DNA from: Squalus acanthias
Taxonomy: Eukaryota
Length of the DNA: 64,000 bases
Direction: 5' to 3'
Assembly: GCA_030390025.1 (NCBI GenBank)
Contig: CM059432.1
Coordinates: forward strand, 95,916,001 to 95,980,000
Below, one piece after another: positions 18,870 through 58,608 of this stretch. The position numbers and the translations under genes were made by a program. Positions within the stretch are counted from its first letter, which is position 1, and each line of letters opens with the position of its first letter. The notes beneath the pieces were generated by a model. That model saw only the letters and a program-made list of their open reading frames with translations. It ran no database searches and had not been told where the DNA came from.

Positions 18870-18986
18870 AAAGTAATTATTCAACAAGTCTGTCATTTCC
18901 TCATTTTCATGTGCAATATTACCCGCATTTGTTTTAAAGGGCCCACATTACCCTTGACTACCCTTTCTCTTCTAATATAATTGTAA

Positions 18987-21900: not shown

Positions 21901-23327
21901 AAGGGCCAGGAATTCGGCCAGGAGTGCCGAGTAGTCATCCGTGGCCCGGGCGTGGCACTGTGACGCCATGTCGGCGGGTTGACGGGGGGCCATGGCGCCC
22001 AGGATGGGGGACATGGTGTTCATGTCCACGAGGCGGTGACGAGGGATGTCTACCAGTAGGCCGTGGGCGCACAGGAAATCTGCGCCGATGAGGGGGGAGA
22101 GCACCTTGGCAGTGATGAACTCCCATCGGTAGCGGTGACCAGCGAGGTCGCGGGTGACTGTCCGGGTGCCATACGTCCGGATTTCCGAGCCGTTAGCAGC
22201 AGCCAGCGCCGGTCCTCGTTCGCCCTTTTGGATGTCGAGGGAGGAGGCCAGGATGATGCTGTGCTGAGCTGAGCCCCAGTGTCACACAGGAACCGGCGGA
22301 CGGTTTTGTCATCCGTGACGAACAGCAGGGAGCCCGCGTGGCCCACGGCCATCACGGGGGCTGGAACGGGGGCGGACTTGAAAGAGCAGGGAGGGGTGCA
22401 CCGTTGTGCCCTGGCGCCGAACCGTGCGTGGTAGTAACAGTGGCCCGGGTTAGTGGGGCGTGAAGGCCCATTGGGCCTGGTGACAGGCCCTTGTAGCCGT
22501 GTGCTGGATGGTGAGGGGCGCGCCCAGGCATTGGCTGCCAGGTCCGGAGTGACGTCGCGGCTGGAGTGAGCGGACAGCAGCTTGTCGGCCTCATCGGCCA
22601 GGGCTTCCAGGTTCGTGAGGCCGGACGCCACGATCGCTGGGCGGATGCTGAGAGGGAGCTGGCGGATGAACAGCGTGTGGAAGAGCGATCCGGGTGGGCT
22701 CTCGTCGGTGAGGGAGAGCATGTGGGAGAGGAGGTCTGACGGTGAGGCATCACCGAGGCCTGGAAGGTCGAGGAGGTGGCAGTTTCGCTGATATGCCGAG
22801 GCCGTAAATTTTTTAAGGAGCGCTGTCCTGAGATGTGCGTACTTGCCTTCCTCTGGTGGGTTCTGCAGCGTTGTCCAAACCTTGGAAACTGCGGCGCTAC
22901 CGAGTGATGTGACGCGATAGTCGTACTTCGTCCCATCTGTGGTGATATTTCGCAGCCGGAAGCGAGATTCAGCTTGGAGAAACCAGGCTTCGGGCTGGTT
23001 TTCCCAAAACTCCGGCAGTTTCACGGAAACTGCGTTCGTGTCCACCATTGCAGTGCTCGGAATACGTTCTGAGCGTCGGGGTCACCAATGTTGAGGCTGC
23101 CGCGAAACACGAATTAAGGCTGAATCCATTTGTGTTAAACAAGAGACTTTTTAATCACCGCATGGCCCAAAATGGCAGACTGAAAAAGCCCCCAGAATTC
23201 TCTGGGTAAAACCTGAGGCCCCGCCCCTTCTGCCTTAAAGGTAAGGTGCCTTAAAGGGAAGGGGCTGGAAATTTGTCCACAGACGGGAAGAGTGGATTAT
23301 GCCCGTTTTAGGTGGCGATCCGCCACT
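18987..23327 (-). mobile_element. Full-length Gypsy LTR retrotransposon, CsRn1 lineage, copy 1 (frameshifted)
   Basis: LTRs 18987-19224 and 23089-23327 (one terminal base mutated); TSD GTAA; PBS TGGTGACCCCGACG (tRNA-Trp); PPT GGGGGGAGCTG. Confidence 0.95.
19245..23048 (-). pseudogene. gag-pol of Gypsy copy 1 (gag, protease, RT, RNase H, integrase)
   Basis: CYYH-X9-C-X3-C, DTGA, YLDD, TDAS, integrase HVDIVGP/SDRG/GLCERFH and GPY; broken into three ORFs. Confidence 0.92.
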
Positions 23328-24493: not shown

Positions 24494-27400
24494 TGTGGCG
24501 GATCGCCACCTAAACGGGCATAACCCACTTTTCCGTCTGTGGACAATATATCGGTGAACCTTCCCTTTAAGGCACATTACCTTTAAGACAGGAGTGGGCG
24601 GGGCTTCAGGGTTTTTCCAGAGAATTCTGGGAGCAGCTTTCTCAGCCATTTTGTGTGCCATGCAGTGAATTAAAGTTTCTTACTTTCCACATATGGATTC
24701 AGCCTCCATTCGTGTTTCGCGGCAGCCTCAACATTGGTGACCCCGATGCTCAGAACGTATTCCGAGCACTGCAATGGCGGACACGAACGCAGCTTCCGTG
24801 AAACTGCCGGAGTTTTGGGAAAACCAGCCCGAAGCCTGGTTTCTCCAAGCTGAATCTCGCTTCCGGCTGCGAAATATCACCACAGATGGGACGAAGTACG
24901 ACTATCTCGTCACATCACTCAGTAGCGCCGCAGTTTCCAAGGTTTGGACAACGCTGCAGAACCCACCAGAGGAAGGCAAGTACGCACATCTCAGGACAGC
25001 GCTCCTTAAAAAAATTACGGCCTCGGCATATCAGCGAAACTGCCACCTCCTCGACCTTCCAGGCCTCGGTGATGCCTCACCGTCAGACCTCCTCTCCCAC
25101 ATGCTCTCCCTCACCGACGAGAGCCCACCCGGATCGCTCTTCCGCACGCTGTTCATCCGCCAGCTCCCTCTCAGCATCCGCCCAGCGATCGTGGCGCCGG
25201 CCTCACGAACCTGGAAGCCCTGGCCGATGAGGCCGACAAGCTGCTGTCCGCTCACTCCAGCCGCGACGTCACGGGCGCGCCTGGCAGCCAATGCCTGGGC
25301 GCGCCCCTCACCATCCAGCACGCGGCCACAAGGGCCTGTCACCAGGCCCACGGGGCCTTCACGCCCCACTAACCCGGGCCACTGTTATTACCACGCACGG
25401 TTCGGCGCCAGGGCACAAAGGTGCACACCTCCCTGCTCTTTCAAGTCTGCCCCCGTACCAGCCCCCGCGATGGCTGTGGGCCACGCGGGCTCCCTGCTGT
25501 TCGTTACGGATGACAAAACCGTCCGCCGGTTCCTGTGCGACACTGGAGCTCAGCACAGCATCATCCCGGCCTCCTCCCTCGACATCCAAAAGGGCAAACG
25601 AGGACCGGCGCTGGCTGCTGCTAACGGCTCGGAAATCCGGATGTATGGCACCCGGACAGTCACCCTCGACCTCGCTGGTCGCCGCTACCGATGGGAGTTC
25701 ATCACTGCCAAGGTGCTCTCCCCTCTCATCGGCGTGGATTTCCTGTGCACCCACGGCCTACTGGTAGACATCCCCCGTCACCGCCTCATGGACATGAACA
25801 CCATGTCCCCCATCCTGGGCGCCATGGCCCCCCGTCAACCCGCCGACATGGCGTCACAGTGCCACGCCCGGGCCACGGATGACTACTCGGCACTCCTGGC
25901 CGAATTCCCGGCCCTTACCAATCCGACCTTCTCTGCGGAGGCCGCCAAACACGGGGTGGAACACTTCATCCCCACCACAGGCCCCCCAGTGTACGCCCAC
26001 ACCCGCAGGCTGGACCCGGCCAAACTGGAGATCGCGCGGACCGAGTTTGCCACCATGGAACAGCTCGGCATCATCCGCCGCTCCAACAGTCCCTGGGCCT
26101 CCCCACTCCACATCGCCCCCAAACCAGGCAGAGGTTGGCGCCCTTGCGGGGATTACCGCCGCCTCAATGACGCCACCACCCCTGATCGGTACCCCGTGCC
26201 GCACATTCAGGACTTCTCGGCTAGACTGGCCGGCCGCTCAGTCTTTTCCAAGGTCGACCTGGTGCGCGGCTACCACCAAGTCCCCGTCCACCCCGCGGAC
26301 ATCCCCAAGTCGGCCGTAATCACCCCCTTCGGCCTGTTTGAGTTTCTGCGGATGCCCTTCGGCCTCAAAAACGCGGCCCAGGCATTCCAACAGCTCATGG
26401 ACTCGGTCCTTCGAGACCTGAAGTTCCTGTTCGTCTACCTGGACGACATCCTGGTAGCCAGTTCCTCCAAGCAGGAACACCTCGAACACCTCTGCATCCT
26501 GTTCGGGCGCCTCAGCGACCATGGGCTCATCCTCAGCCCAGCCAAATGCCAGTTCGGCCTGGACAAGATCGACTTCCTCGGCCACCACATCACCCATGCT
26601 GGGGCCATTCCCCTGCCCACCAAGGTGCAGGCCGTCCAACAATTTCACCGCCCCACCACCATCAAAGGCCTCCAGGATTTCCTCGGGACGGTGAACTTCT
26701 ATAACCGCTTCATCCCCAAAGCGGCGTCCCTCATGAGGCCCCTGTATGAAACCCTCCGGGGCAGGAGTGGCAAGATGGCAGTCGAATGGACGGCAGACGC
26801 GTCAGCTGCCTTCGATTCCACCAAGACCGCGCTCGACAACACCACCCTGCTCGCGCACCCACGGCCCAATGCCAGTGTAGCACTCACCACGGACGCCTCC
26901 GACCACGCGGTCGGCGCCGTGTATGAACAGTGGGTCGACGGCGCCTGGCAACCAGTTGCCTTCTTCAGCCGCCAACTACGCCCCCCGGAGGTCAAGTACA
27001 GCACCTTCGACCGCGAGCTCCTCGCGTTGTTCCTGGCAGTCCACCATTTCCGGATTTTGCTTGAGGGCCACCCCTTCGCTGCGTTTGTCGACCACAAACC
27101 CCTGACATTCGCAATGGCAAAGACAACCGACCCCTGGTCCGCCAGGCAGCAGCGCCAGCTCGCGGCAGTGTCCGAGTTCACCACGGACATCCAACACGTC
27201 TCCGGCCGAGACAATGTGGTAGCCGACTGCCTCTCCCGCCCCACCATCCACGCCGCACACCTAGCAGTCGACTACGCTCAACTCGCAGCAGACCAGATCA
27301 CTGACCCTGATCTGCTCTCCGCACCCACCAACCTACCAGGGCTACGCCTGGCCATCGTCGCCTGTGGCCCGACCGCAGTCACGGTCAAGTGCAACATATC

Positions 27401-28845
27401 CCTATGTCAACCTCGGCCCGTCGTCCCAGCTTCCTGGCGCCGCCGGGTATTCGACATTCTCCACAACCTCTCCCACCCCGACGCCCGCACATCCATCAAA
27501 TTTGTAGACAACCGCTTCATCTGGCGCGGCCTTCACATGGATGTGCGTACTTGGGCCAACTCCTGGCTAGCCTGCCAACGGGCCAAGGTACAGCAACACA
27601 CGAAAGCACCCCTCGAGGAGTTTACCGTCCCCTCGCGGAGATTCGACCACATCCACGTGGACATCGTCGGGCCCCTGCCGCTGTCGCAAGGCCACACGCA
27701 CTTGCTGACCATCATTGACCGCACCACACGCTGGCCTGATGCAATTCCACTGACCTCTACCACCACCGCCGACATCGCCAGAGCCTTCGTCAGCAGCTGG
27801 GTCGCACGGTTCGGCGTCCCCTCCGACATGACGTCGGACAGAGGTCCGCAATTTACCTCTGAACTCTGGACCGCCGTTGCACGCAATCTCGGGGTGACCA
27901 TTCACCGCACCACAGCATACCACCCCCAAGCCAACGGACTGTGTGAGCGGTTCCACAGATCCTTGAAGGCATCTCTTCGAGCCAGCCTCCAAGACGGCGC
28001 CTGGACCGACCGACTTCCGTGGGTCCTCCTCGGCCTGTGCACCGCGGTTAAAGAAGACCTCCACGCATCGGCAGCAGAGCTCGTGTACGGTCAGCCGCTG
28101 CGCGTACCCGGTGAGTTCCTGCCCACCGCCACGACACCCTGGTCAGCCGACCAGCAACGCCACGACTTCGCCTCACCGGCGCTGCAGTTCGCCCCGGTGC
28201 CCATTGCTCGACACGGCGAATCCACCTCACACGTCCCACTAAGCCTGCACCAGGCACGGTTTGTTTTCGTCCGGCACGACGCCCACAGCGGACCCCTTCA
28301 ACCCCCGTACAACGGGCCCTACAAGGTGCTACAGGCTGGGGACAAATTTTTCACCCTGCTAGTGGGCGACAGGACCGAAAAAGTGTCGGTTGACCGTCTC
28401 AAGCCAGCACACTCGGAGCCCGGTGAGCAGGTCCCTGTAGCTCGTCCACCTCCACGCGGCCGACCTGCCCTCAAGCCGGTTCACCCAGCTGCTCCACGCC
28501 CACCGTTCCACGTCCACCGGCGTCCTACAAGAGCCGCTCCGGCCGGCCCATCAGACCGCCGCACCGTCTCGTCCACACCTCATAAGCGGATTCTGGGGGG
28601 AGCTGTGTGGCGGATCGCCACCTAAACGGGCATAACCCACTTTTCCGTCTGTGGACAATATATCGGTGAACCTTCCCTTTAAGGCACCTTACCTTTAAGA
28701 CAGGAGTGGGCGGGGCTTCAGGGTTTTTCCAGAGAAATCTGGGAGCAGCTTTCTCAGCCATTTTGTGTGCCATGCAGTGAATTAAAGTTTCTTGTTGTCC
28801 ACATATGGATTCAGCCTCCATTCGTGTTTTGCGGCAGCCTCAACA
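24494..28845 (+). mobile_element. Full-length Gypsy LTR retrotransposon, CsRn1 lineage, copy 2
   Basis: LTRs 24494-24733 and 28606-28845 (6 differences in 240 bp by eye); TSD ACAA; PBS at 24735; PPT at 28595-28605. Confidence 0.97.
24774..28625 (+). CDS. Single-ORF gag-pol polyprotein, 1283 aa (open, but with a compensated frameshift in gag and a C-terminal frameshift)
   Basis: Domain order gag(CHCC)-PR(DTG)-RT(YLDD)-RNase H-IN(HHCC, DDE, GPY), as in Ty3/Gypsy. Confidence 0.9.
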   Translation: MADTNAASVKLPEFWENQPEAWFLQAESRFRLRNITTDGTKYDYLVTSLSSAAVSKVWTTLQNPPEEGKYAHLRTALLKKITASAYQRNCHLLDLPGLGDASPSDLLSHMLSLTDESPPGSLFRTLFIRQLPLSIRPAIVAPASRTWKPWPMRPTSCCPLTPAATSRARLAANAWARPSPSSTRPQGPVTRPTGPSRPTNPGHCYYHARFGARAQRCTPPCSFKSAPVPAPAMAVGHAGSLLFVTDDKTVRRFLCDTGAQHSIIPASSLDIQKGKRGPALAAANGSEIRMYGTRTVTLDLAGRRYRWEFITAKVLSPLIGVDFLCTHGLLVDIPRHRLMDMNTMSPILGAMAPRQPADMASQCHARATDDYSALLAEFPALTNPTFSAEAAKHGVEHFIPTTGPPVYAHTRRLDPAKLEIARTEFATMEQLGIIRRSNSPWASPLHIAPKPGRGWRPCGDYRRLNDATTPDRYPVPHIQDFSARLAGRSVFSKVDLVRGYHQVPVHPADIPKSAVITPFGLFEFLRMPFGLKNAAQAFQQLMDSVLRDLKFLFVYLDDILVASSSKQEHLEHLCILFGRLSDHGLILSPAKCQFGLDKIDFLGHHITHAGAIPLPTKVQAVQQFHRPTTIKGLQDFLGTVNFYNRFIPKAASLMRPLYETLRGRSGKMAVEWTADASAAFDSTKTALDNTTLLAHPRPNASVALTTDASDHAVGAVYEQWVDGAWQPVAFFSRQLRPPEVKYSTFDRELLALFLAVHHFRILLEGHPFAAFVDHKPLTFAMAKTTDPWSARQQRQLAAVSEFTTDIQHVSGRDNVVADCLSRPTIHAAHLAVDYAQLAADQITDPDLLSAPTNLPGLRLAIVACGPTAVTVKCNISLCQPRPVVPASWRRRVFDILHNLSHPDARTSIKFVDNRFIWRGLHMDVRTWANSWLACQRAKVQQHTKAPLEEFTVPSRRFDHIHVDIVGPLPLSQGHTHLLTIIDRTTRWPDAIPLTSTTTADIARAFVSSWVARFGVPSDMTSDRGPQFTSELWTAVARNLGVTIHRTTAYHPQANGLCERFHRSLKASLRASLQDGAWTDRLPWVLLGLCTAVKEDLHASAAELVYGQPLRVPGEFLPTATTPWSADQQRHDFASPALQFAPVPIARHGESTSHVPLSLHQARFVFVRHDAHSGPLQPPYNGPYKVLQAGDKFFTLLVGDRTEKVSVDRLKPAHSEPGEQVPVARPPPRGRPALKPVHPAAPRPPFHVHRRPTRAAPAGPSDRRTVSSTPHKRILGGAVWRIAT

Positions 28846-28859
28846 ACAATATATAGAAA

Positions 28860-34880: not shown

Positions 34881-36189
34881 TAGGGGCTAGAAATTCGTTA
34901 TAGCCAAGGAATGGGCAGTATCAGTAGAAAAGTTGGAGAATTAGTGCCAGGCGCAAATGCTTTAGACTGCACGCATAATTAGTCCTCACTGCTCAATAAA
35001 ATGATTGGAGTCCTAAACCAAATCTTAAAATCCAAGCTCATTGGCGTTAGACTTAAAGGGTGGATCAATATCAGGTGCAGTCTAATTACAAGTCATCATT
35101 GCCACAGGCTTTTTTCACTACTTAAAGGGGAGGTTCATTGATGCTGCAGCACCTCATTCTCAGCATTGCTGGCTGTGCAGCTGCCTCAGCAAGCAGAAGC
35201 AGAACAAGGAGAAGGAGCCAGAGGACTGAACCAGGTGTGCTCATGGCAGGTCCACGCCCTAGGGAGAGAGCCCACAGATTCTCTGATGAAGCATTGGAGG
35301 TATTGGTGACGAGACAGAGGGCGGTGCTCTACCCAGCAAGTGGCAGGAGGCCCTCGCCACAAGTCTTCCACACCATGTGGTGGGTGGTACCGCAGCACGT
35401 CTCAGGCAGCACTGTGGTCCCCAGGACTGACACACAGTGCAGGAAGCAATTTAACGACCTCACTTGGGTGGTCAGGGTGAGTGAATGCTTCAACAAATGC
35501 TACATACCACCATCTGAACCACAGTCTGCACACACTGCCCAAAGCACCACACCCCACCACTCACCCATCAACAATCTCTACCTAGCAACACTCTCACCCA
35601 CATCTTACACCTTGCACACAATGACAGCTATTCAACTATGGCAGGCACAAGGGTCACTAGTTATTAGAATTCATGTGATATGTGTGATGTGTTTATAGAT
35701 ACATTTATTAATGGTCTCTGGAATATTTTGTGATCTCTCTCATTTCACCTTTGCGCCCATGAGACAGGAATTACATGATGGCGATGTGGTGAGCTATGGG
35801 GATCTGGGATTTCATTCATGTGAATCAGAGTCTGATGAGCTGGTCACGGACAGCCCGTCCAGAAGGCAGATTGTCTCCCTCCCTCCTGTTCCTCTTCCTC
35901 CTCGTCCTCTTCCTCCTTGTCCTCCTCCTCATCCTCTTTCTCCTCTGCCTCATCCTCCTCCTGAGGTGGTCCCGCAATCTCTGCTGGAAAGGGCTGTGCC
36001 CTCATGATGGCCAAGTTGTGGAGCATGCAGCAGACCACCAGGAAATGGGACACCCACTCTGGTGAGTACTGGAGGGCTCCTCCTGAGTGGTCAAGGCAGC
36101 AGAACCGTTGCTTCAGTAGCCCAATTGTCTGCTTGATGATGTTCCTGGTGGCAGCATGGCTCTCATTATATGAGTGCTGGGCATGAGTG

Positions 36190-37624
36190 TGTAGGGGGTG
36201 GTGGTTTGTGTCAGCTTCACCTCTGTCTTCTGAGCGGTTTGAATCGCTCCCACTCCCTTGGTTCTAGACCTTGGACTTATTTGGGGGTTGTGATAAAAAG
36301 TGCAGCAGACAACTGGTTTTGATGCAAGAACTTTGATCTTTATTCAAGAAAGTAAAACACAACACAAACACTCTTAACACTCTAAAAGTGGGGAACACTT
36401 CGGTACAAGCGAGGGAAATAACATTAAAAAGAATACTTCACCCCTCCCAATCCCACTTCACTAGCTAGGTTGGATTCCAGAGGACCAGGGATGATACTCA
36501 CCAGAATCCTTGAGTTAAGTTAGTTCGCTGTTTTGGGGTTCACTCTATATGTTGGTTGGTGTCTGCCGTACCCGTACGCGATAGAGGACTTCAACTGCGT
36601 ATCTGGTCAGTCTTCGCGAGTCCGCTGATGCGGTAGGGTGCGTATTGGATCTATCAGGTGAGTACCCACTTTCTTTAGTTTAGAAGTAGGGTTTAGAGTT
36701 TTTTAAGGGAAAATCTTACCCAGGGGTAAGTCAGGAGTAGATTGTAGAGTAGAAACTTTGCGATTCTTCGGGTTTTCTTCGAGTTGGTTTTCTTTGGTCG
36801 CTGTAGCCCAATTGTTGATACTTGGTGTTTAGTTGGTTGTTTCGTGAGGGCCTTGTTGCCGTGAGGTGTCCGGTGGTCACTGAGGCGGTTGTTCTGGGTT
36901 CTTCTTGTGTCAGCCTATTTTTTTTGGATGGTCTGGCCTGCGAGCTGTCGACCTCCTGGCTGGACACGGAACACTGAACGGTGTTGGTTTTTTAGAACTG
37001 TGTTGCGGAGAATGCCTCCGTTGATGTCTTCTTGTTCTTCCTTCCTCTTCTTCTTTTCAGGTTGAGAACGGGCCTTCAATTATACCCATTGAAGGTTCCT
37101 TATCTGCGTGCCAAATCAGGTCTCGGTCTTTGTTAGTTTTGGCGGGCTCGTTATCTGTAACTGGTTTGCTAAGGTGTGAAGTGGTTCCGGGATGGCCCCA
37201 TCCCGTTGATGTGCCACTTAATCGGAGTTTGATCGTTCTTATGTTTTGGGTTTTCTTGGCTGGGCCTATGATTTCTATGGAGTAAGCCGAAGTAATTTGT
37301 TTTATGCATGTCTTAATGGGCTCTGTAGCTTGGGGTGGAGACCGTTTTCCTCGGGTTTATTGTTAGGATGCTAATGTCTGATAGGGGCCGATTTACACTC
37401 CCAGCGAGATCATGCGGTTCCCCAGACAGTTCCCATTAGCTCCAATACCCAAACGGCTTTTACAGAGGTTGAACCCACCTTCATTCACAGCCTTTTCTCC
37501 CTGACAAGCCCAGACATGTTTTCTCAAAATCCTTTGGTTAGGCTCAATGCAATTCACTACCCTGTTTCCTTAGGGTTTGTCTTCGAGTTTTGGGGGATCT
37601 GTGAAGAATTTTGAGAATCTTACA
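36190..37624 (-). mobile_element. Long solo LTR (1435 bp), diverged relative of copies A and C, copy B
   Basis: TGTA...TACA ends; TSD AGTG (36186-36189 / 37625-37628) inside HARBI1; AATAAA on - at 36339-36344; shares the hairpin and GGTTCTA...TGGACTTA block with 6360-6410. Confidence 0.8.
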
Positions 37625-37706
37625 AGTGTTGGGGTTGTGGAGGGGAGTCATGAGCCAGGTGGAGAGCGGATAGCCCTTGTCTCCGAGCAGCCACCTTTGA
37701 GCTTGA

Positions 37707-39116
37707 CAAATTTGCTGGAGTTCTTTGAGGAAGTAACATATAGAGTGGATAAAGGGGAACCAGTGGACGTAGTGTATTTAGACTTCCAAAAGGCATTTGA
37801 CAAGGTGCCACACAAAAGATTATTGCTTAAGGTAAAAAATCACGGGATTGGGGGTAATATTCTGGCATGGATAGAGATTGGCTATCTAACAGAAAGCAAA
37901 GAGTTGGGATAAATGGTTCATTCTCAGAATGGCAATCAGTAACTAGTGGTGTTCCACAGGGGTCAGTGCTGGGTCCCCAACTCTTTACAATCTATATTAA
38001 CGATTTGGAGGAAGGGACCAAGTGTAACATATCAAAATTTGCAGATGATACAAAGATGGGTTTGGAAAGTAGTGAGTGAGGAGGACATAAAAAACCTGCA
38101 AGGGGACATAGACAGGCTAAGTAAGTGGGCAGAGATTTGGCAGATGGAATACAACACTGGAAAGTGTGAGGTGATGCACTTTGGCAGGAAAAATCCTAGA
38201 GCAATTTATTATCTTAATGGCAAGAAACTGGAGAGTACTGAAGTGCAAAGGGATCTGGGGGTCCTGGTGCACGAAACTCAAAAGGTTAGTATGCAGGTGC
38301 AGCAAGTGATTAAGAAGGCAAATGGAATGTTGGCTTTCATTGCTAGGGGGATATAATATAAAAATAGGGAGGTATTGCTTCAGTTGTACAAGGTATTGGT
38401 GAGACCGCACCTGGAATACTGCATACAGTTTTGGTGTCCTTACTTAAGGAAAGACATCCTTGCTCTCGAGGCAGTGCAAAAAAGGTTCACTCGGTTAATC
38501 CCGGGGATGAGGGGGTGGTCATATGAGGAGAGGTTGGGTAGATTGGGACTCTACTCATTGGAGTTCAGAAGAATGAGAGGCGATCTTATTGAAACATATA
38601 AGATTGTGAAGGGGTTGGATCGGGTGGATGCGGGGAGGATGTTCCCGATGACGGGTGAGACTAGAACTAGGGGACATAGTCTTAGAATAAGGGGCTGCTC
38701 TTTCAAAACTGAGATGAGGAGGAACTACTTCACTCAGAGGGTGGTAGGTCCATGGAATATGCTGCCACAAAAAGCTGTAGAAGCTACATCATTAAATAAA
38801 TTTAAAACAGAAATAGACAGTTTCCTAGAAGTAAAGGGCATTAAGGGTTACGGGGAGCGGGCAGGAATTTGGACATGAGTCTAGGTTCGGATCGGTCATG
38901 GCCCTGTGGGTAGTGGAGCGGGCCCAGGGACCGTGTAGCCTGATTCTGCTCCTATTTTGTGTGTGCAATTCTGTTAGATGCAGGAGATGGTTCTGTGATA
39001 GATAGTAGATTGGCGGTTAGGATCAGATCAGCCATGATCTTATTGAATGGCGGAGCAGGCTCGAGGGGCCGATTGGCCTACTCCTGCTCCTATTTCTTAT
39101 GTTCTTATGTTCTTAC
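37707..39116 (+). mobile_element. CR1 LINE 3' fragment flanked by a 133-bp direct repeat
   Basis: [13 protein letters not shown] through LEFRRMRGDL; tail (TTCTTATG)n. Confidence 0.92.
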
Positions 39117-39789
39117 GGTTTGTCTTCGAGTTTTGGGGGATCTGTGAAGAATTTTGAGAATCTTACAAGTGTTGGGGTTGTGGAGGGGAGTCATGAGCCA
39201 GGTGGAGAGCGGATAGCCCTTGTTTCCGAGCAGCCACCTTTGAGCTTGATGTGGGGGCTGGAAGAGTGCTGGCACACCGGTCTGGCGCAGGATGAAGGCA
39301 TCGTGGCTGCTGCCAGGATAGTGGGCATTGATATTAAGGATTTGCTGTGTGTGGTCGCACACCAACTGCACATTAAGTGAATGGTAGCTTTTGCAGTTAC
39401 GGAAGATCTCAGGATTGTTATGCGGTGCCCGCAAAGCCACGTGGGTGCAGTCAATGGCACCCTGCACTGTGCCGAATCCTGCTATCCTGGCAAAGCCACA
39501 TGCATGATTGTCCTGCTTCTCTCTGGTAATCGGGAAGCCAATGTAGTCCCTTCTCCTGCTGTAGAGAGCCTAAGTAACCTCCCGGATGCAGCGATGGATG
39601 GAAAACTGTGAGATGTTAGCTATGTCTCATGTTGCACACTGAAAGGATCCGCTGGCAAAGAAATTGATGGCCACAGTAACCTTGACTGCCAGTGGGAGAA
39701 CCGTGGTCACCCTGGTCTGAGACTGGAGTTCTGGTTGCAGGAGGTGGCAGAGTTCTGTGACCACCTCCTTGGTGAAGCGAATCCTTCTA

Positions 39790-42681: not shown

Positions 42682-43052
42682 AGGAATTTTAGTGTTAAGT
42701 TCAGCCACTCTGTGCAGCACAAAGATTTCCTAATACATGTGCCTACTTTTTTGTGTTTTCTTTAATGAATTTTATCAAAAAGCAAATATGTGTTTATTCA
42801 GATCAAAAATTAAACAGGATGCTCGCAATCAGCAAACGCTGTGTTTACTGAGCAAAACAAATTTTCTAAGGAACAAATAAAATATGTTAAAAAAATAATA
42901 ACCCCATCAATCTTCATAAGATATAATGCAGGGAGCTAATGTTCATCATTAGCCCAATTCTCAACACCTCCCCCAATTGAACTTGGTTCAGCCACAAGTA
43001 TTAGGAAATCTCTGCGCTGCCCAGAGTGGCTGAACTTAACACTAAAATTCCT
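42682..43052. repeat. ~60-bp inverted repeat pair around an AT-rich core (MITE-like)
   Basis: 42682-42741 is the reverse complement of 42993-43052 with about 4 mismatches. Confidence 0.75.
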
Positions 43053-43155
43053 CAGTACGAGGTCCCTTGCTCTCAGTACGAGGTCCCTTGCTCTCAGTAC
43101 GAGGTCCCTTGCTCTCAGTACGAGGTCCCTTGCTCTCAGTACGAGGTCCCTTGCT
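43051..43155 (+). repeat. Perfect 21-bp tandem repeat x5 (CTCAGTACGAGGTCCCTTGCT) at a CR1 5' end
   Basis: Seen directly; the unit corresponds to the CR1 (G)SVLGPLL codons. Confidence 0.95.
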
Positions 43156-45702: not shown

Positions 45703-48700
45703 TGGCTGAAATTTTCCCTTTGAAATGACTGTGGGTTTGCGAGTGGGTGGGATGTTAAAAGCGCTGAAATTGACAGCGTGTCGGGAACCCGCCGACTTCC
45801 ACCTTTTACTCCGGCGCATTTCTCAGCGCACCAGAGACCCACTCAGGAGAGGTAGGCAACCTCATTGAAGTTTATAAGAGGTCGTTAACAGACCGTTAAG
45901 ATGCTTTTCAACCTGAGGTTTCAGCTTTTACTGGGTGCACATGGGATTCACGGGCTTCCTGAAACTCGCCTGTCAAAGCAAGGTGAGAAGTGACCGGCCA
46001 TTGTATGAGTTGAATTGTCAGTTGAAATAATCACATAAATACTCACACCTGCTTCCTTGCCTAAGGGAAAGGCTCTTGCTGACACCATTGGTGCAGAGAA
46101 TTTGCTTTCAGGAGTTTTCAGGTGATTCCTGCAACCTCGGAAGTCACTCTCACTACATTGCAGGATTGTGCCTCTGATCTTCACTTTACCTGGCATCTAT
46201 CAGATCAGCATGAGTGGCGCTTATGCTGTTTCACCTTGGACCTCAGATTCGGACCAAGATGAGCCCCAGCACCAACAACACCAGCAGCAGCAGCCACCAC
46301 AACAGCAGTCTTCTCCTCAATGACCTGATGCTCCACAGGAGAGAGGGGGTCAGCACAGGGGTGCACTGCACCGGAGGCGATATCCCCAGCACAGGGTATA
46401 TAGGCAGAGGATGAGCTTCTTGGACATGATTGAACAGCAGTGCTTCTGGAGGCTCAGGCTATCGCACCAGGTCATCGCAGACATTTGCAGCTTCTTCAAA
46501 GAAGACCTGCTGCTAAGTGGACCTGGTGGACACGTGTTACAAGTGGCTGTCAAAGTCACCACCACCCTCAAATTCTTCACCTCAGGCTCCTTCCAGGTAT
46601 CTGCAGCAGATGTAGAATTCGCAATATTATCGCGATTTTATAAATAAGGAGGAGACACATAGTTTCGTACAAACAGCTTTATTTCAGCAGAATGCTGTCA
46701 GGTTTTCAAAGTGGACACAAGCAGCCTGTAAAATGGCCGCCACGCCTCGTGGCAGAACATTCTAGACTTTTCGATAAGCAGACAAGATGGCGTTCCAATA
46801 AACATTTGTGCGAGATCGTACAAGACTCAGCACATTTGAGATAAATCACAAGACATAATGGGTTTGCATTTTACGCATAAATACTGGAATCGGTCTCCCA
46901 GGTGCGAATAAGGGCTATTGTACCAAGCGATCAAGAACCCATCCAAAGACATTAATATGCAAAATCCCCACGACTCTACGATGAGAGAGCCGTTTGCTAC
47001 GATGAGAGAGCAGAAACGAGTAAACAAGTGGGGTACAGAGACCCCTGATCAACACGTGGGTGGTCAGGTGCTGCAGGAAAAACATCCGAGCAGAGTTTCG
47101 GAATTCTCCGAGTTATCACGAGTGGTGAGCATGAGTCTCGATCCTACAAATCTAGTTTAGGTCAGGTATTGATAGGGGAAGCCCCAAAACCCCTCCAGGG
47201 AGAATACTGGCCGGTTACACAATGGGAGAAGTATTAACGGGTACTCAGGCAGTTACAAGTATCACCGAAACCCATTAAAACGGAGATCACCCTATACAAG
47301 AAGTTTGAGCGCCAAAACTCTGACAAAAGAAAAGACATTAAGATTGGGCGGGAAAAGAGGAATTACAGCACTATAACTGTAAGGTACAACCGTCCATCGC
47401 TCTTGACTCCTTGCCGCTTGCCTCGTGCCTCTGCCTCTTGCTGCTCGACTTGCTGGAAGACTATTGAACTTTCTGATCCGCCAGGATCAACCTCGTGGCT
47501 TGCCGCGAAGATCTGTGTGGAACTGGGCTGTGAGGCCTTGAAACGGGCACACCATCCCGAGAAGTCGGTAAACGGTGTTGGAACCGAAGGCCCGAGATGA
47601 GATGAGATGAGATGAGAAGAGAAGAAGACGACAATACGTATCGCCACGGTCAGTAAGCCCCGACCGCGCCTGCAAGTCGAATAAACACTTTTCCTTGCCC
47701 AGGAAGACCATTCTTCGAGTTTTATCGCATCGGGGCGAGGGCACAGGAAGACTATTTTTCGAGTCGTGTCGGAACTCCGAGGACAACACAGATCTTCATG
47801 ACAGCAGACGGTCCAGCCTGCTAGCCGGAGCAGAAACGAGTAAACAAGTGGGGTACAGAGACCCCTGATCAACACGTGGGTGGTCAGGTGCTGCAGGAAA
47901 AACATCAGAGCAGAGTTTCGGAATTCTCCGAGTTATCACGAGTGGTGAGCATGAGTCTCGATCCTACAAATCTAGTTTAGGTCAGGTATTGATAGGGGAG
48001 GGTTTAAGTTTTAAGAATAATTGTAATGTGTGCCCCCTTTTACGATGTGTCGTGCGCTCCTCGTTTCCCTAAAATTAGTTACATAACTGCGTGTAAGATT
48101 GTACTGTCATTAATCTGTGCTTATGACATGTATTTCGTAATCTTGAATAATATGCAATAAAGATTTTCCATTTCGCACTATTCAACCGGGTCTACCTGAG
48201 TTTTCTCTGCATTATTGCTCTCGCATCTAAGTCCAGTGTCAGAACCGTAAGGGCGAGTGGGTCGAACCACTCACAGGTGTCTAGTGCTACCAGGCTGGCT
48301 GGAGACCAGAACAGGCAACAAGGCCTAACCTCGCACTAGCACCCAGGCTAAGCACAGAGCCTCAGGCGTGTCAAAACCCTTACACAGACACTTCCAGGAT
48401 CTCGCAGTCGGCCGCACACACATGCATGACCCAGGTGACCGATGCCATGTTTCACAAGTCAGGCACTTATGTGCACTTTGCCACTGATGAAGCCAGTGTG
48501 ACTGAGCGTGTGCTCGACTTTGTGGCTCTGGCTGGCTTCCCACAGGTGCAGGGTGTCATCGACAGCACACATGTGCCCATCAAGGCACCCCCAGATCACC
48601 CAGGAGTGTTCGTGAACCGGTAGGGCTTCCACTCCCTCAATGTGCAGCTCATCTGCAACCATAAAAAGATCATCATGCGTGTGTGTGCCAGATTCCCAGG

Positions 48701-49290: not shown

Positions 49291-51620
49291 GCTCGAGGTT
49301 AAGTTTTTTTAAAATTCGTTTGTGGGATGTGGGCGTCGCTGGCAAGGCCAGCATTTATTGCCCATCCCAAATTGCCCTTGAGAAGGTGGTGGTGAGCCGC
49401 CTTCTTGAACTGCTGCAGTCCGTGTGGTGAAGGTACTCCCACAGTGCTGTTAGGATTTTGATCCAGCGACGATGAAGGATTGGTGATATACTTCTAAGTT
49501 AGGATGGTGTGTGACTTGGAGGGAAACTTGGAGGTGGTGGTGTTCCCCATGCGCCTGCTGCCCTTGTCCTTCGAGGTGGAAGAGGTCGCGGGTTTGGGAG
49601 GTGCTGCCGAAGAAGCCTTGGCGAGTTGCTGCAGTGCATCTTGTAGATGGTACACACTGCAGCCACGGTACGCCGGTGGTGGAGGGAGTGAATGTTTAAG
49701 GTGGTGGATGGGGTGCCAATCAAGCAGGACTGCTTTGTCCTGGATGGTGTCGAGCTTCTTCAGTGTTGTTGGAGCTGCACTCATCCAGGCAAGTGGAGAG
49801 TATTCCATCACGCTTTACTTGTGACTTGTAGATGGTGGAAAGGCTTTGGGGAGTCAGGAGGTGAGACACTCACCGCAGAATACCTAGCCTCTGGCCTGCT
49901 CTTGTTGCCACAGTATTTATGCAGCTGGTCCAGTTAAGTTTCTGGTCAGTGGTGACCCCCAGGATGTTGATGTTGGAGGATTCGGCGATGGTAATGCCGT
50001 TGAATGTCAAGGGGCAGTGATTAGACTCTCGCTTGTTGGAGATAGTCATTGCCTGGCACTTGTGTGGCACGAATGTAACCTGCCACTTATCAGCCCAAGC
50101 CTGAACATCGTCTAGGTCTTGTTACATGCGGGCATGGACTGCTTCATTATCTGTGGAGTTGTGAATGGCACTGAACACTGTGCAGTCATCAGCAAACATC
50201 CCCATTTCTGACCTTATGTTGGAGGGAAGATCTTTGATGAAGCAGCTGAAGATGGTTGGGCCTAGGACACTGTCCTGATGAACTCCTGCAGCGATGTCCT
50301 AGGGCTGTGATGATTGACCTTCAACCACCACAACCATCTTCCTTTGTGCTAGGTATGACTCCAGCCAATGGAGAGTTTTCCCCCGATTCCCAATGACTTC
50401 AGTTTTACTAGGGCTCCTTGATGCCACACTCAGTCAAATGCCGCCTTGATGTCAAGGGCAGTCACGAAGGAGGCCATTCGGCCCATCGAGTTCGTGCCGG
50501 CTCTCTGTAGCAATCCAGTCAGTCCCATTCCCCCGCTCTATCCCCGTAGCCCTGCAAGCTTATTTCTCTCAAGTGCCTATCCAGTCTCCCCTTGAAAACA
50601 TTGAGTGTCTCCGCTTCCACCACTTCCGTCGGCAGCGAATTCCAGGTTATCACAACTCGCTGTGTAAAGAAGTTTTTCCTCACATCCCCCCTGTATCTCC
50701 TGCCCAAAACTTAAATCTGTGTCCCCTCGTCCTTGTACCATCAACTAGTGGGAACAGCCTTTCCCCGTCTAGTCTATCCAAACCCGTCATAATCTTGTAC
50801 ACCTCTGTCAAATCACCCCTCAACCTCCTTTGCTCTAATGAAAACAAATCCAGCTTCTCCAACCTGTCCTTATAGCTACGATCCCCCATCCCCAGAACCA
50901 TTATGATAAATCTCTGCACCCTCTCAAGGGCCTTCACATCCTTCCTAAAGTGTGGTGACCAAAACTGGACGCAATACTCCAGTTGTGGCTGAACCAGCGC
51001 TTTATAAAGGTTCAGCATAACTTCTCTATTTATGAAGCCCAAGATCCCATATGCTTTGCTAAGCACTCTCTCATTATGTCCCGCCACCTTCAGGGACCTA
51101 TGCACATTAACTCCCAGGTCCCTCTGTCCCTGCACACTCTTTAAAACTGTGCCATTAAGTGTATATTGCCTCTCCCTGTTCCCTCTGCCAAAATGCATCA
51201 CCTCACACTTCTCTGTATTAAATTCCATCTGCCACTTGTCTGCCCATTCTGCTAGCCTTTCTATGTCCTGTTGCAGTCGATTGGTATCATCATCACTGTT
51301 TGCCACACCCCCAAGTTTGGTGTCATCGGCAAATTTAGAAATTCTACTCTGTATTCCAATATCCAGGTCATTTACATATATCAAAAAAAGCAGTGGCCCC
51401 AGCACTGACCCTTGGGGAACACCACTGTCTAGCATCCTCCAGTCTGAAAAACAGCCATTTACCACAACTCGTTGTTTTCTGTCTTTAAGCCATTTCTTTA
51501 TCTAAGCTGCCACTGACCCACTTATTCCATGAGCCTCAATTTTGTTAACCAGCCTTCTATGTGGTACTTAGTCAAAGGCCTTTCTAAAATCCATGTAAAC
51601 AACATCCATTGCATTCCCAT

Positions 51621-54600
51621 TGTTGAGGCTGCCGCGAAACACGAATTAAGACTGAATCCATGTGTGGAAAACGAGAGACTTTTTAATGCACTGCATGGTA
51701 CAAAATGGCTGAACAGACAGCTCCCAGAATTCTGTGGGAAAATCCTGAGGCCCCGCCCACTCCTGCCTTAAAGGTAAGGTGCCTTAAAGGCAAGGTGTTC
51801 GATATTTGTCCACGGACGGAAAAGTGGATAATGCTCGTTTAGGTGGCGATCCGCCACACAGCTCCCCCCAGAATCCGCTTAGGAGGTGTGGACGAGACGG
51901 TGCGGCGGTCTGATGGGCTGGCCAGAGCGGCTCTTGTAGGACGCCGGTGGATGTGGAACGGCCGGGCGTGGAGCAGCCGGGTGAACCGGCTTGAGTGCAG
52001 GTCGGCCGCGTGGAGGTGGACGAGCTACAGGGACCTGCTCACCGGGCTCCGAGTGTGCTGGCTTGAGTCGGTCAACCGACACTTTTTCGGTCCTGTCGCC
52101 CACTTGCAGGGTGAAAAATTTGTCCCCAGCCTGTAGCACCTTGTAGGGCCCGTCGTACGGGGGTTGAAGGGGTCCGCGGTGGGCGTCGTGCCGGACGAAA
52201 ACAAACCGTGCCTGGTGCAGGCTTAGTGGGACGTGTGAGGTGGATTCGCCGTGTCGGGCAATGGGCACCGGGGCGAACTGCAGCGCCGGTGAGGCGAAGT
52301 CGTGGCGTTGCTGGTCGGCTGACCAGGGTGTCGTGGCGGTGGGCAGGAACTCGCCGGGTACACGCAGCGGCTGACCGTACACGAGCTCTGCTGCCGCTGC
52401 GTGGAGGTCTTCTTTAACCGCGGTGCGCAGGCCGAGGAGGACCCACGGAAGTCGGTCGGTCCAGGCGCCGTCCTGGAGGCTGGCTCGAAGAGATGCCTTC
52501 AAGGATCTGTGGAACCGCTCACACAGTCCGTTGGCTTGGGGGTGGTACGCTGTGGTGCGGTGAATGGTCACCCCGAGATTGCGTGCGACGGCGGTCCAGA
52601 GTTCAGAGGTAAATTGCGGACCTCTGTCCGACGTCATGTCAGAGGGGATGCCGAACCGTGCGACCGAGGTGCTGACGAAGGCTCTGGCGATGTCGGCGGT
52701 GGTGGTAGAGGTCAGTGGAATTGCCTCAGGCCAGCGTGTGGTGCGGTCAACGATGGTCAGCAAGTGCGTGTGGCCTTGCGACGGCGGCAGGGGCCCGACG
52801 ATGTCCACGTGGATGTGGTCGAATCTCCGCGAGGGGACGGTAAACTCCTCGAGGGGTGCTTTCGTGTGTTGCTGTACCTTGGCCCGTTGGCAGGCTAGGC
52901 AGGAGTTGGCCCAAGTACGCACATCCTTGCGAAGGCTGCGCCAGACGAAGCGGTTGGCTACCAATTTGATGGATGCGCGGGCGCCGGGGTGGGAGAGGTT
53001 GTGGAGAATGTCGAATACCCGGCGGCGCCAGGACGCTGGGACGACGGGCCGAGGTTGACATAGGGATATGTCGCACTTGACCGTGACTGCGGTCGGGCCA
53101 CAGGCGACGTCGGCCAGGCGTAGCCCTGGTAGATTGGTAGGTGCGGAGAGCAGATCAGGGTCGGTGATCTGGTCTGCTGCGAGTTGAGCGTAGTCGACTG
53201 CCAGGTGTGCGGCGTGGATGGCGGGGCGGGAGAGGCAGTCGGCTACCACATTGTCTCGGCCGGAGACGTGTTGGATGTCCGTGGTGAACTCGGACACTGC
53301 CGCGAGCTGGCGCTGCTGCCTGGCGGACCAGGGGTCGGTTGTCTTTGCCATTGCGAATGTCAGGGGCTTGTGGTCGACAAACGTAGTGAAGGGGTGGCCC
53401 TCAAGCAAAAACCGAAAATGGCGGACTGCCAGGAACAGCGCGAGGAGCTCGCGGTCGAAGGTGCTGTACTTGACCTCCGGGGGGCGTAGTTGGCGGCTGA
53501 AGAAGGCAAGTGGTTGCCAGGCGCCGTCGACCCACTGCTCATACACGGCGCCGACCACATGGTCGGAGGCGTCCGTGGTGAGCGCTACCCTAGCGAGCAG
53601 GGTGGCGTTGGTGAGCGCGGTCTTGGTGGAGTCGAAGGCGGCGGACGCGTCTGCCGTCCATTCGACCGCCATCTTGCCGCTCCTACCCCGGAGGGCTTCA
53701 TACAGGGGCCTCATGAGGGACGCCGCTTTGGGGATGAAGCGGTTATAGAAATTCACCATCCCGAGGAACTCCTGGAGGCCTTTGATGGTGGTGGGGGGGG
53801 GAAATTGTTGGACGGCCTGCACCTTGGTGGGTTGGGGAATGGCCCCAGCATGGGTGATGTGGTGGCCGAGGAAGTCGATCTTGTCCAGGCCGAACTGGCC
53901 TTTGGCTGGGCTGAGGATGAGCCCGTGGTCGCTGAGGCGCCCGAACAGGATGCGAAGGTGATCGAGGTGTTCCTGCTTGGAGGAACTGGCTACCAGGATG
54001 TCGTCCAGGTAGACGATACAGGAACTTCTGGTCCCGAAGGACGGAGTCCATGAGCCGTTGGAATGCCTGGGCCGCGTTTTTGAGGCCGAAGGGCATCCGC
54101 AGGAACTCGAACAGGCCGAAGGGGGTGATTACGGCCGACTTGGGGACGTCCGCGGGGTGGACGGGGACTTGGTGGTAGCCGCGCACCAGGTCGACCTTGG
54201 AAAAGACTGAGCGGCCGGCCAGTCTAGCCGAGAAGTCCTGAATGTGCGGCACGGGGTACCGATCAGGGGTGGTGGCGTCGTTGAGGCGGCGGTAATCCCC
54301 GCAGGGGCGGCAACCTCCGCCTGGTTTGGGGGCGATGTGGGAGTGGGGAGGCCCAGGGACTGTTGGAGCGACGGATGATGCCGAGCTGTTCCATGGTGGC
54401 AAACTCGGTCCGCGCGATCTCCAGTTTGGTCGGGTCCAGCCTGCGGGCGTGGGCGTACACTGGGGGGCCTGTGGTGGGGATGAAGTGTTCCACCCCGTGT
54501 TTGGCGGCCTCCGCGGAGAAGGTCGGATTGGTAAGGGCCGGGAATTCGGCCAGGAGTGCCGAGTAGTCATCCGTGGCCCGGGCGTGGCACTGTGACGCCA

Positions 54601-55969
54601 TGTCGGCGGGTTGACGGGGGGCCATGGCGCCCAGGATGGGGGACATGGTGTTCATGTCCATGAGGCGGTGACGGGGGATGTCTACCAGTAGGCCGTGGGC
54701 GCACAGGAAATCTGCGCCGATGAGAGGGGAGAGCACCTTGGCAGTGATGAACTCCCATCGGTAGCGGCGACCAGCGAGGTCGAGGGTGACTGTCCGGGTG
54801 CCATACGTCCGGATTTCCGAGCCGTTAGCAGCAGCCAGCGCCGGTCCTCATTCGCCCTTTTGGATGTCGAGGGAGGAGGCTGGGATGATGCTGTGCTGAG
54901 CCCCAGTGTCGCACAGGAACCGGCGGCCGGTTTTGTCACCTGTGACGAACAGCAGGGAGTCCGTGTGGCCTACGGCCATCGCGGGGGCTGGTACGGAGGC
55001 GGACTTGAAAGAGCAGGGAGGTGTGCACTGTTGTGCCCTGGCGCCGAACCGTGCGTGGTAGTAACAGTGGCCCGGGTTAGTGGGGCGCGAAGGCCCCGTG
55101 GGCCTGGTGGCAGGACCTTGTGGCCGCGTGGTGGCCGGTGAGGGGCACGCCCAGGCATTGGCTGCCAGGTCCGGAGTGACGTCGCGGCTGGAGTGAGCGG
55201 ACAGCAGCTTGTCGGCCTCATCGGCCAGGGCTTCCAGGTTCGTGAGGCCGGACGCCACGATCGCTGGGCGGATGCTGAGAGGGAGCTGGCGGGTGAACAG
55301 CGTGCGGAAGAGGGATCCGTGTGGGCTCTCGTCGGTGAGGGAGAGCATGTGGGAGAGCAGGTCTGACGGTGAGGCATCACCGAGGCCTGGAAGGTCGAGG
55401 AGGTGGCAGTTTCGCTGATATGCCGAGGCCGTAAATTTTTTAAGGAGCGCGGCCTTGAGATGTGCATACTTGCCTTCCTCTGGTGGGTTCTGCAGCGCTG
55501 TCCAAACCTTCGAAACTGTGGCGCTACCGAGTGATGTGACGAGGTAGTCGTACTGCGTCCCATCTGTGGTGATGTTTCGCAGCCGGAAGCGAGATTCAGC
55601 TTGGAGAAACCAGGCTTCGGGCTGGTTTTCCCAAAACTCCGGCAGTTTCATGGAAACTGCGTTCGTGTCCGCCATTGCAGTGCTCGGAATACGTTCTGAG
55701 CGTCGGGGTCACCAATGTTGAGGCTGCCGCGAAACACGAATTAAGACTGAATCCATGTGTGGAAAACGAGAGACTTTTTAATGCACTGCATGGTACAAAA
55801 TGGCTGAACAGACTGCTCCCAGAATTCTCTGGAAAAATCCTGAGGCCCCGCCCACTCCTGCCTTAAAGGTAAGGTGCCTTAAAGGTAAGGTGCCTTAAAG
55901 GCGAGGTGTTCGATATTTGTCCACGGACGGAAAAGTGGATAATGCCCGTTTAGGTGGCGATCCGCCACA
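51621..55969 (-). mobile_element. Full-length Gypsy LTR retrotransposon, CsRn1 lineage, copy 3 (frameshifted)
   Basis: LTRs 51621-51858 and 55716-55969; TSD CCAT; tRNA-Trp PBS; PPT. Confidence 0.96.
51879..55675 (-). pseudogene. gag-pol of Gypsy copy 3
   Basis: Same domains as copy 2; frameshifts near 54850, 54340 and 54015, plus a short in-frame deletion near 53590. Confidence 0.92.
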
Positions 55970-58608
55970 CCATCATCAATCCTCTCTGTTACTTCATCAA
56001 AAAATTCAATTAGATTAGTCAAACACGATTTGCCTTTTACAAATCCGTGTTGGCTCTCCCTAATTAGCTTAAACCTCTCCAAGTGCCCGTTAATTTTTTC
56101 CTTGATTATTGTTTCTAAAACTTTACCCACCACTGATGTTAAACTGATCGGCCTGTAGTTATTAGAATTGTCCTTACACCCTTTCTTGAACAATGGTGTC
56201 ACATTTACCACTTTCCAATCCTCAGGCACTTCCCCCGCATCTAGGGAAGATTGGAAAATTATGGCAAGCTCTTCCGCTATCTCCTCCCCCAATTCCCTTA
56301 GCAACCTGGGATGCAAACCATCTGGACCAGGCGACTTGTCCACTCTAAGCATACCCAGCCTTTCTAGTACATCCTGTCTAGCAATTTTCGCCCCTTCCAT
56401 TGCTTCTATCCTTTCCACTTCTACTGATATTTTGTCAGCATCCACCTCCTTAGTAAACACTGATACAAAGTACTCATTGAGTATTCTAGACTTGCCCTGC
56501 GCCTCTAAGCATATATCGCCTTCTTTGTCTCTAATAGACCCCACCCCGCCTCTTACTACCTGCTTACTGTTTACATGCCGGTAGAAGATTTCTGGGTTCT
56601 CTTTTATGTTAACTGCATTCTACTCTCATATTCTTTCTTTGCCAATCTTATTTTCATCTTCACTTCCCCTCTCAACTGATAGTATTTGGTCTGGTTCTCC
56701 CTTGACGAATTCACCTGACATGCATCATACACCCTCTTTTTTTGTTTCATCATCTTCTCTATCTCCCTCGTCATCCAAGGAGCCCTTGCGTTGGTTCCCT
56801 TACTCTTCACTCTTGTTGGAATGTACCTAGCCTGTACTTGGAACATCTCCTCCTTAAAGATCACTCATTGTTCCGTTACAGTTTTTCCTGTCAGTCTTTG
56901 GTTCCATTTTACCCTGGCTAGATCGTTTCGCATCCCATTGAAGTTAGCCCTATTCCAGTTTAGAAGTTCCACTCTAGATTGTTCCTTGCTCCTCACCATT
57001 GCTAATCTAAATCTTATGATACGATGATCACTCGTACCCAAGTGTTCTCCCACAGAGACTTGGTCGACCTGGCCCACCTCATTCCCCAGCACCAGATCCA
57101 GCAATGCCTCCTTCCTAGTTGGACCTGGAACATACTGCTCAAGGAAATTCTCCTGAACATTTTTCAGAAATTCCTCCCCTCCTTTTCCTTTACCCTAGCA
57201 TTATCCCAATCGATATTTGGGTAATTAAAGTCCCTCAATATCACCACTCTATAGCTCTTGCATATCTCTGCGATTTCCCTGCAGATTTGCTCCTCTACCT
57301 CCCTCTCTATATTTGGAGGCCTATAGAATACCCCCACTAGCGTGATCATACCCTTTTTGCTCCTCAACTCTAACCAAATGGATTCTGTACTTGTCCCCTC
57401 AAGAACATCCTCCCTTTCCAACACTACAATGTCTTCCTTAATCAGCAGTGCTACCCCACCTCCCTTTTTTCCTTCCCTGTCTTTTCTGAACACCTTGTAC
57501 CCTTGAATATTACGTGCCTAGTCCTCACCATTTTTAAGCCACGTTTCCGTTATTGCCACAACATCATATTGCCACACGGCTAATTGTGCTTGTAGCTCAC
57601 CAACCTTATTCACCACACGTTGTGCGTTTACGTACAAGCATTCTAAACCCATTTTTGAATTTTTCGTAGTCTTTCTTAATCTGCTCCTATCTAATATGGT
57701 ATTACTACTGCCTTTAGTACTATCTTCCCTAGTTCTATCCAACACACTCACTCTTTTAGGCACCTTATTTCTCTTTTCTACTCCTATATGTTGGTGCCCA
57801 TCCCCCTGCCAAGCTAGTTTAAACCCTCCCCAACAGCACTAACAAACCTCCCCGCAAGAATATTGGCCCCGGCTCTGTTGAGGTGTAACCCGTCTGGCTG
57901 GTACAGGTCCTACCTTCCCCAGAAATGGTCCCAGTGCCTCAGGAATCTAAAGCCCTCCCTCCTGCACCATCTCTCCAGCCACGCATTCATCTGTTCTGTC
58001 CTCCTATTCCTGTACTCACTAGCACGTGGCACCGGGAGTATTCCGGAGATTACTATCTTTGAGGTCCTGCTTTTTAATCTCTTTCCTAGCTCCCTAAGCT
58101 CTGCCTGCAGGACCTCATCCCTCTTTCTGCCTATGTCGTTGGTACCGATATGGACAACGACCTCTGGCTGTTCACCCTCCCCCCTCAGAGTGTCCTGCAG
58201 CCACTCAGTGACATCCTTGACACTGGCACCAGGGAGGCAACATACCATCCTGGAGTCACGTCTACGGCCGCAGAAACGCCTGTCTGCTCCCCTAACTATC
58301 GAATCCCCTACCACTATCACTCTTCCACTGAGGTCGGGAGCCGAGTGGTCTTGGTGGAACCCAAACTGGGCATCAGTGAGCAGGTTGTTGGTGAGTAAGT
58401 GCCGCTTGATAGCACTGTTGATGACACCTTCTATCACTTGGCTGATGATTGAGAGTAGGCTGATGGGGCGGTAATTGGCCAGATTGGATTAGTCCTGCTT
58501 TTTGTGGACAGGACATACTTGGGCAGTTTTCCACATTGTCGGATAGATGCCAGTGTTGTAGTTGTACTGAAACAGCTTGGCTAGAGGCGCGGCTAGTTCT
58601 GGAGCACA

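Follow-up and report, generated by a model that had tools for sequence, protein, structure and literature searches.

The 64-kb stretch of DNA analysed here (the window) consists almost entirely of repeats, including pieces of CR1/L2-type LINEs, remnants of Harbinger transposases and three Gypsy elements of 4.3 kb, family labels that we presume from the translations; such a mix suggests a cartilaginous fish. The Gypsy elements lie at 18985-23326 (- strand), 24494-28846 (+ strand; the middle copy, with a 1294-aa open frame) and 51617-55970 (- strand), are 94% identical to one another and carry LTRs of ~240 bp. One of the LINE pieces contains, at 43051-43155, a perfect tandem repeat of five 21-bp units. 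The subject of this report is a further set of three elements, A, B and C, each inserted into another repeat with a 4-bp target-site duplication (TSD). Element A (1654 bp; 6245-7898, - strand) is flanked by TTAT at 6241-6244 and 7899-7902; element B (1435 bp; 36190-37624, - strand), a member of a distant family, lies within a Harbinger copy and is flanked by AGTG at 36186-36189 and 37625-37628; and element C (1774 bp; 46611-48384, + strand) is related to A, splits the frame of a decayed Harbinger transposase gene and is flanked by CAGA at 46607-46610 and 48385-48388 (+ strand). For all three, the coordinates, strands, TGTA...TACA ends and TSDs listed in an earlier, sequence-only reading of this DNA proved exact. 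Harbinger transposase remnants host two of the three (B and C), a sample of three from which no target preference can be claimed.

Pairs of TGTA..TACA ends with a 4-bp direct repeat at a spacing of 1.3-1.9 kb occur five times in the window; 30 Markov-simulated windows had 1.4 on average and never more than 4. This pattern alone is weak support for insertions, and the real support comes from empty sites. For B, a Harbinger paralogue near 953-956 carries AGTG once instead of twice, and two contigs of run X1 join position 46606 to 48385 with a single CAGA, giving an empty site for C. For A, the paralogous site near 50318-50332 spans the insertion point, yet its target sequence is different, so that it is less clean than the sites of B or C. 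Immediately to the right of A (7899-7925), an 8-bp insert sits between two copies of a 10-bp stretch of the target region, a minor rearrangement that affected the junction secondarily.

The empty sites, the layout of promoter and poly(A) signals, the lack of a conserved gene and an upstream junction resembling a polypurine tract (PPT) that was found in contigs, the last three described below, all support the earlier proposal of solo LTRs for A, B and C, about which we have very little doubt. A full provirus would have integrated at each site and then lost its interior through LTR-LTR recombination, the general route to solo LTRs. The competing idea that these are not LTRs at all but complete non-autonomous elements, such as DNA transposons with 4-bp terminal inverted repeats, draws on the finding that the sequence examined (the 64-kb window and the run contigs) showed neither a paired copy nor a primer site. 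We regard it as highly improbable, given a terminal inverted repeat of just 4 bp, target sites that all differ (TTAT, AGTG, CAGA), a polarised TATA-to-AATAAA layout and a PPT-like upstream junction common to two organisms.

CpG observed/expected ratios were 0.86-0.87 for A and C, 0.61 for B and 0.36-0.46 for nearby LINE and Harbinger copies, which suggests that A and C inserted fairly recently and belong to distinct subfamilies. For B, a relative date comes from a CR1 element at ~37707-39111 that is bracketed by a 138-bp duplication with two differences (37569-37706 and 39112-39249). This duplication, unusually long for a LINE target duplication, contains 56 bp of the 5' end of B (39112-39167, - strand), indicating that the CR1 element inserted later than B.

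Comparison of the three elements with one another revealed one close and one distant relationship. A and C share 69-75% identity by BLASTN and 77% identity over 1545 aligned columns, rising to 87-91% near the last AATAAA, and their alignment spans most of their length, in keeping with the earlier description of the two as colinear. B had no BLASTN match to A or C, and its whole-length local score against each was equalled by 1 of 200 shuffles; the last 450 nt of B outscored all 200 shuffles against both A and C, but the first 600 nt did not. All that B has in common with A and C is the layout of signals, together with a U5 motif and one resembling a splice donor. The assignment of all three to a single family, while sound in relating A to C, was therefore overstated for B, and the three elements represent at least two families, probably of one lineage. 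The C family is abundant, variable and present in runs labelled as three organisms, with 8504, 748, 614 and 561 contigs in the four runs and 30 of 30 bins covered in each.

C owes its length of 1.77 kb to a private duplication, in which a 172-bp copy of 47828-47999 (99.4% identical) lies within U3 at 47008-47179 (+ strand); a C-family LTR without it is ~1.6 kb. The duplication is absent from A, and other copies of the family have ~20-30 different letters at this place (joints 46994/46997 to 47177-47183). Short microhomologies are found at its ends, at which a template switch would have produced the duplication. Neither this duplication nor the additional AATAAA that A and C carry had been noticed in the earlier reading. 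C also carries a GAGAT microsatellite at 47594-47622.

At the motif level, promoter and poly(A) signals follow U3-R-U5 order in A, B and C, each having a TATA-like box, then a donor-like TGGTGAG and then an AATAAA 740-812 nt after the TATA. In C, the TATA-like box and pyrimidine stretch (47372-47404, + strand) are kept in A and predict a transcription start near 47400; the TATAA reported earlier at 47372 in C and at 7286-7290 in A, with its CTCTT stretch, is indeed present. The 5' splice-site-like TGGTGAG, at 47943-47949 in C (+ strand), is found in A, B and C 157-213 nt before the last AATAAA. That AATAAA (48156-48161, + strand), which had also been noted in all three elements, lies 233, 154 and 228 nt from the 3' end of A, B and C, respectively, is followed by GT/T-rich sequence and is the likely poly(A) signal. 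The second, upstream AATAAA (47680-47685, + strand), common to A and C but not B, lies ~700 nt from the 3' end, follows the TATA by 308-355 nt (355 nt in A) and is a candidate alternative poly(A) signal. Two motifs described as YY1-like occur in both A and C (46730-46792 in C, + strand; motif level), but the label is weak, with 29 occurrences of the loose core in the window, and any function of theirs is putative.

Given this layout, transcription would start ~27 nt past the TATA box and end after the last AATAAA, producing an R region of ~0.75-0.8 kb; the predicted R region of C folded no better than shuffles (z +1.1). [quoted passage not shown] Since the analogy comes from prototype foamy virus, it favours a foamy-like parent too.

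Near the 3' end, A, B and C share a U5 motif, AAGTCCA-N5/6-AGAACC, which is followed by a 6-bp hairpin (motif and hairpin at 48229-48272 in C, + strand, with the hairpin at 48255-48272; motif at 6389-6406 in A and 36260-36278 in B) and lies 66-73 nt past the AATAAA. The pattern, picked after viewing the alignment, matches three times in 64 kb, once in each element, where 0.01 matches would be expected. Shuffled sequences were as stable as the hairpin region (z -0.1 to -1.7), and one of its six pairs is altered on both sides in B, a slight signal from three sequences only. The snakehead retrovirus probably uses an arginine primer. By eye, AAGTCCA is the complement of UGGACUU, a stretch found in human tRNA-Arg(UCU), Gln(UUG) and Ser(UGA) (PMC12217144, PMC11096365), and it would pair with UGGACUU in the anticodon arm of the primer tRNA; because all three tRNAs carry this heptamer, the pairing cannot name the primer. 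ARAGORN, run in linear mode at a lowered threshold, called a 73-nt tRNA-like fold antisense to the U5 of A (6340-6412) but none in B or C, and a tRNA gene in U5 was rejected because the fold appears in one of the three elements only.

The earlier statement that the elements carry no recognisable gene was borne out for A and C, in which indels are mostly non-triplet and mismatches lack codon periodicity. A stop-free frame of 213-215 aa antisense to the U3 of A (7258-7905, + strand) is longer than those in 500 of 500 shuffles; it was rejected as a gene, being not kept in C and having no Pfam match near the cut-off. None of 134 candidates for this frame (lengths 118-377 only) reached E<=0.001, and the best Atlas score was 0.75. 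Rfam gave no matches at gathering score within the window, and an exact 24-mer search returned no viral contigs. The degenerate U5 pattern matched five viral loci, one 20-mer matched one metagenome locus and another 20-mer matched four prokaryote loci. We rejected these ten public-collection loci as chance, as none shares more than 27 nt with A, B or C, and all fall within long open frames and outside tRNAs.

Analysis of contig ends supplied a candidate for the sequence that preceded the C-family LTR in its parent element. A 16-nt loose end, ...AACAGGAGGG-AC, directly before 46611, is identical in one contig of run X10 and two of run X18 (two of the four runs) and is one among the 24 of 701 loose ends listed, which include none with a primer-binding site. 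Its layout, seen in the C family only, is a purine run, AC and then the TG start of the element, and it had no match in the window at up to three mismatches. Its richness in purines, its position right at the terminus and its identity between two organisms lead us to read it as a polypurine tract. It may instead derive from host flank, since 8 of its first 12 letters agree with the Harbinger sequence flanking C, albeit with the register shifted by 3. If it is a polypurine tract, integrase would have trimmed a dinucleotide from the U3 end, accounting for the AC spacer between the tract and TG.

This junction bears directly on the earlier suggestion that the parent was foamy-like. LTR length and TSD fit that suggestion: the teleost foamy-like ERVs AciFLERV, AliFLERV and DrFV have LTRs of 1.37-1.7 kb with the TATA near mid-LTR, like A, B and C, and 4-nt TSDs are described for all but one complete insertion (PMC5210030). 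AciFLERV has its TATA near 660 and AATAAA near 1010 of 1498 nt, placing the TATA ~840 nt from the LTR end, and the TATA-to-upstream-AATAAA distance of 355 nt in A compares with ~350 nt there (PMC5210030). Having a splice donor upstream of the poly(A) signal, the arrangement of prototype foamy virus, has been called unique to foamy LTRs (PMC3694450), and all three elements have a donor-like motif likewise placed. A 13-mer, ACAAGTGGGGTAC, of C (47844-47856) and A (6790-6802, approximate) also occurs in the LTR of newt NviFLERV-2 (PMC5512871), probably by chance. However, every foamy virus and every teleost foamy-like ERV covered there is described as having a GGGTG junction without spacer, a feature tied to trimming of one DNA end only (PMC5210030), and in the newt foamy-like element NviFLERV the PPT likewise abuts TG (PMC5512871), in contrast to the AC spacer of the C family. 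In the three C-family contigs from two runs, GGGTG without spacer was not found, conditional on the loose end being the PPT.

The AC spacer appears to be the single observation that discriminates between classes, and with it a foamy-like parent is disfavoured. The junction comparison involves one 16-nt loose end in three contigs from two runs, so the foamy-like reading is disfavoured and no more than that. A shark foamy lineage lacking GGGTG, or a misread loose end, would reconcile the data with a foamy-like ERV, a reading that we consider unlikely. Length and TSD fit foamy and non-foamy groups, so neither discriminates, and LTR length with TATA position was rejected as a class marker because both foamy-like and lokiretrovirus examples fit. 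Foamy viruses are recognised by a Lys, Asn or Thr primer-binding site, a Gag without a Cys-His box and a Pol in the foamy clade, while A, B and C are known from LTRs alone.

Gypsy elements, too, often have a short spacer after the PPT, and the AC spacer does not separate these from retroviruses. Assignment of A, B and C to a long-LTR Gypsy family, Barthez-like or similar, is consistent with TG...CA ends and 4-6-bp TSDs, which are general among LTR retrotransposons (PMC12440569), and with the Barthez clade of fish, in which some families have TG...CA LTRs of more than 1 kb, up to 1.0-1.1 kb in pufferfish (PMC11117352). However, at 1.4-1.65 kb, the LTRs studied here exceed the ~1.1 kb of the longest LTR in that survey (PMC11117352), and the window's own Gypsy copies, with their ~240-bp LTRs and another junction, do not resemble A, B or C in sequence. 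The CAA-purine-GG-AC-TG form at the start of C agrees instead with published retrovirus-like examples (PMC4422223, PMC7947760). We therefore judge a Gypsy parent improbable, noting that Gypsy membership is defined by a Gag-Pol with a single RNase H and an RT within Metaviridae, and that A, B and C are represented by LTRs only. Troyka was rejected, its CG...CG ends and 3-bp TSD differing from those of A, B and C (PMC12440569).

Taken together, these comparisons lead us to lean, by a narrow preference over the other readings combined, towards a parent that was a long-LTR non-foamy retrovirus-like element with at least two related families. This corresponds to the fallback of an otherwise basal retroviral lineage in the sequence-only reading, for a parent known from its LTRs. 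Within it, lokiretrovirus/BHIKHARI-like and snakehead-retrovirus-like parents are about equally likely, and an epsilon-like one less so.

A lokiretrovirus/BHIKHARI-like parent is a tentative candidate. The Loki-Bsp LTR is ~1.8 kb by line count, long like those of A, B and C, and its TATA, pyrimidine stretch, donor-like motif and AATAAA ~1.1 kb past the TATA resemble their layout (PMC7947760). Several lokiretrovirus consensus sequences have GGG-AC-TG junctions like that of the C family; in the lokiretrovirus supplement, of whose 24 consensus sequences part was covered, all five matches to GGGACTGT look by eye like PPT:LTR junctions, although that of Loki-Bsp itself is GGGGGG-A-TG (PMC7947760). 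A long LTR and a spacer-type junction are thus both found in lokiretroviruses, a resemblance that is not diagnostic. Solo LTRs also predominate in the zebrafish BHIKHARI families, with 119 of 196 and 337 of 393 insertions (bioRxiv 10.1101/2024.03.25.586437). At the level of sequence motifs, the examined part of the lokiretrovirus supplement contained no match to TAAGTCCA, GAGTGGGTC or the YY1-like motif and two matches to TGGTGAGCA, both in coding sequence, and no U5, donor or YY1-like sequence motif of A, B and C was found in lokiretrovirus LTRs there (PMC7947760). The literature searched yielded no stated TSD length for lokiretroviruses. Lokiretroviruses, which are defined by an RT in the Loki clade, a tether plus RNase H and an F-type Env, were found in none of six cartilaginous-fish genomes (PMC7947760), and a search outside most subscription journals, Repbase and Dfam found none published from cartilaginous fishes.

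A snakehead-retrovirus-like parent, though doubtful on present evidence, has the advantage of a cartilaginous-fish host in the elephant-shark ERV CmiERV lineage I, whose PPT ends GG-AC-TG and whose ATCAA-purines-GG-AC-TGT junction is the closest match by eye to that of the C family (PMC4422223). This lineage differs in having an LTR of ~0.83 kb by line count, with AATAAA near the LTR end, and AAGTCCA was not found in the part of the elephant-shark ERV data set covered (PMC4422223). Snakehead-retrovirus-like ERVs form clade Huo, defined by RT grouping with SnRV, and the likeness here is one of junction only. We consider an epsilon-like parent very unlikely, the epsilon-like elephant-shark ERV having a GG-AG-TG junction and an LTR of only ~0.6 kb by line count (PMC4422223).

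A more specific proposal, which we put forward as conjecture, assigns these LTRs to an abundant and diversified lokiretrovirus lineage of cartilaginous fishes, in which foamy-type control by a splice donor before the poly(A) signal would operate within a very long R and would predate the split between foamy viruses and lokiretroviruses.

Solo LTRs are ordinary genomic debris. Fish foamy-like ERVs already provide examples of long LTRs with 4-bp TSDs, and at least one lokiretrovirus provides a long LTR. The value of A, B and C is modest: they tag abundant, apparently unnamed families common to several related hosts, and their junction, U5 motif and splice donor are cheap handles for retrieving the parent element. 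Were that parent a lokiretrovirus, the gap that cartilaginous fishes leave in the lineage would be closed, with implications for the early retroviral control of polyadenylation in the 5' LTR.
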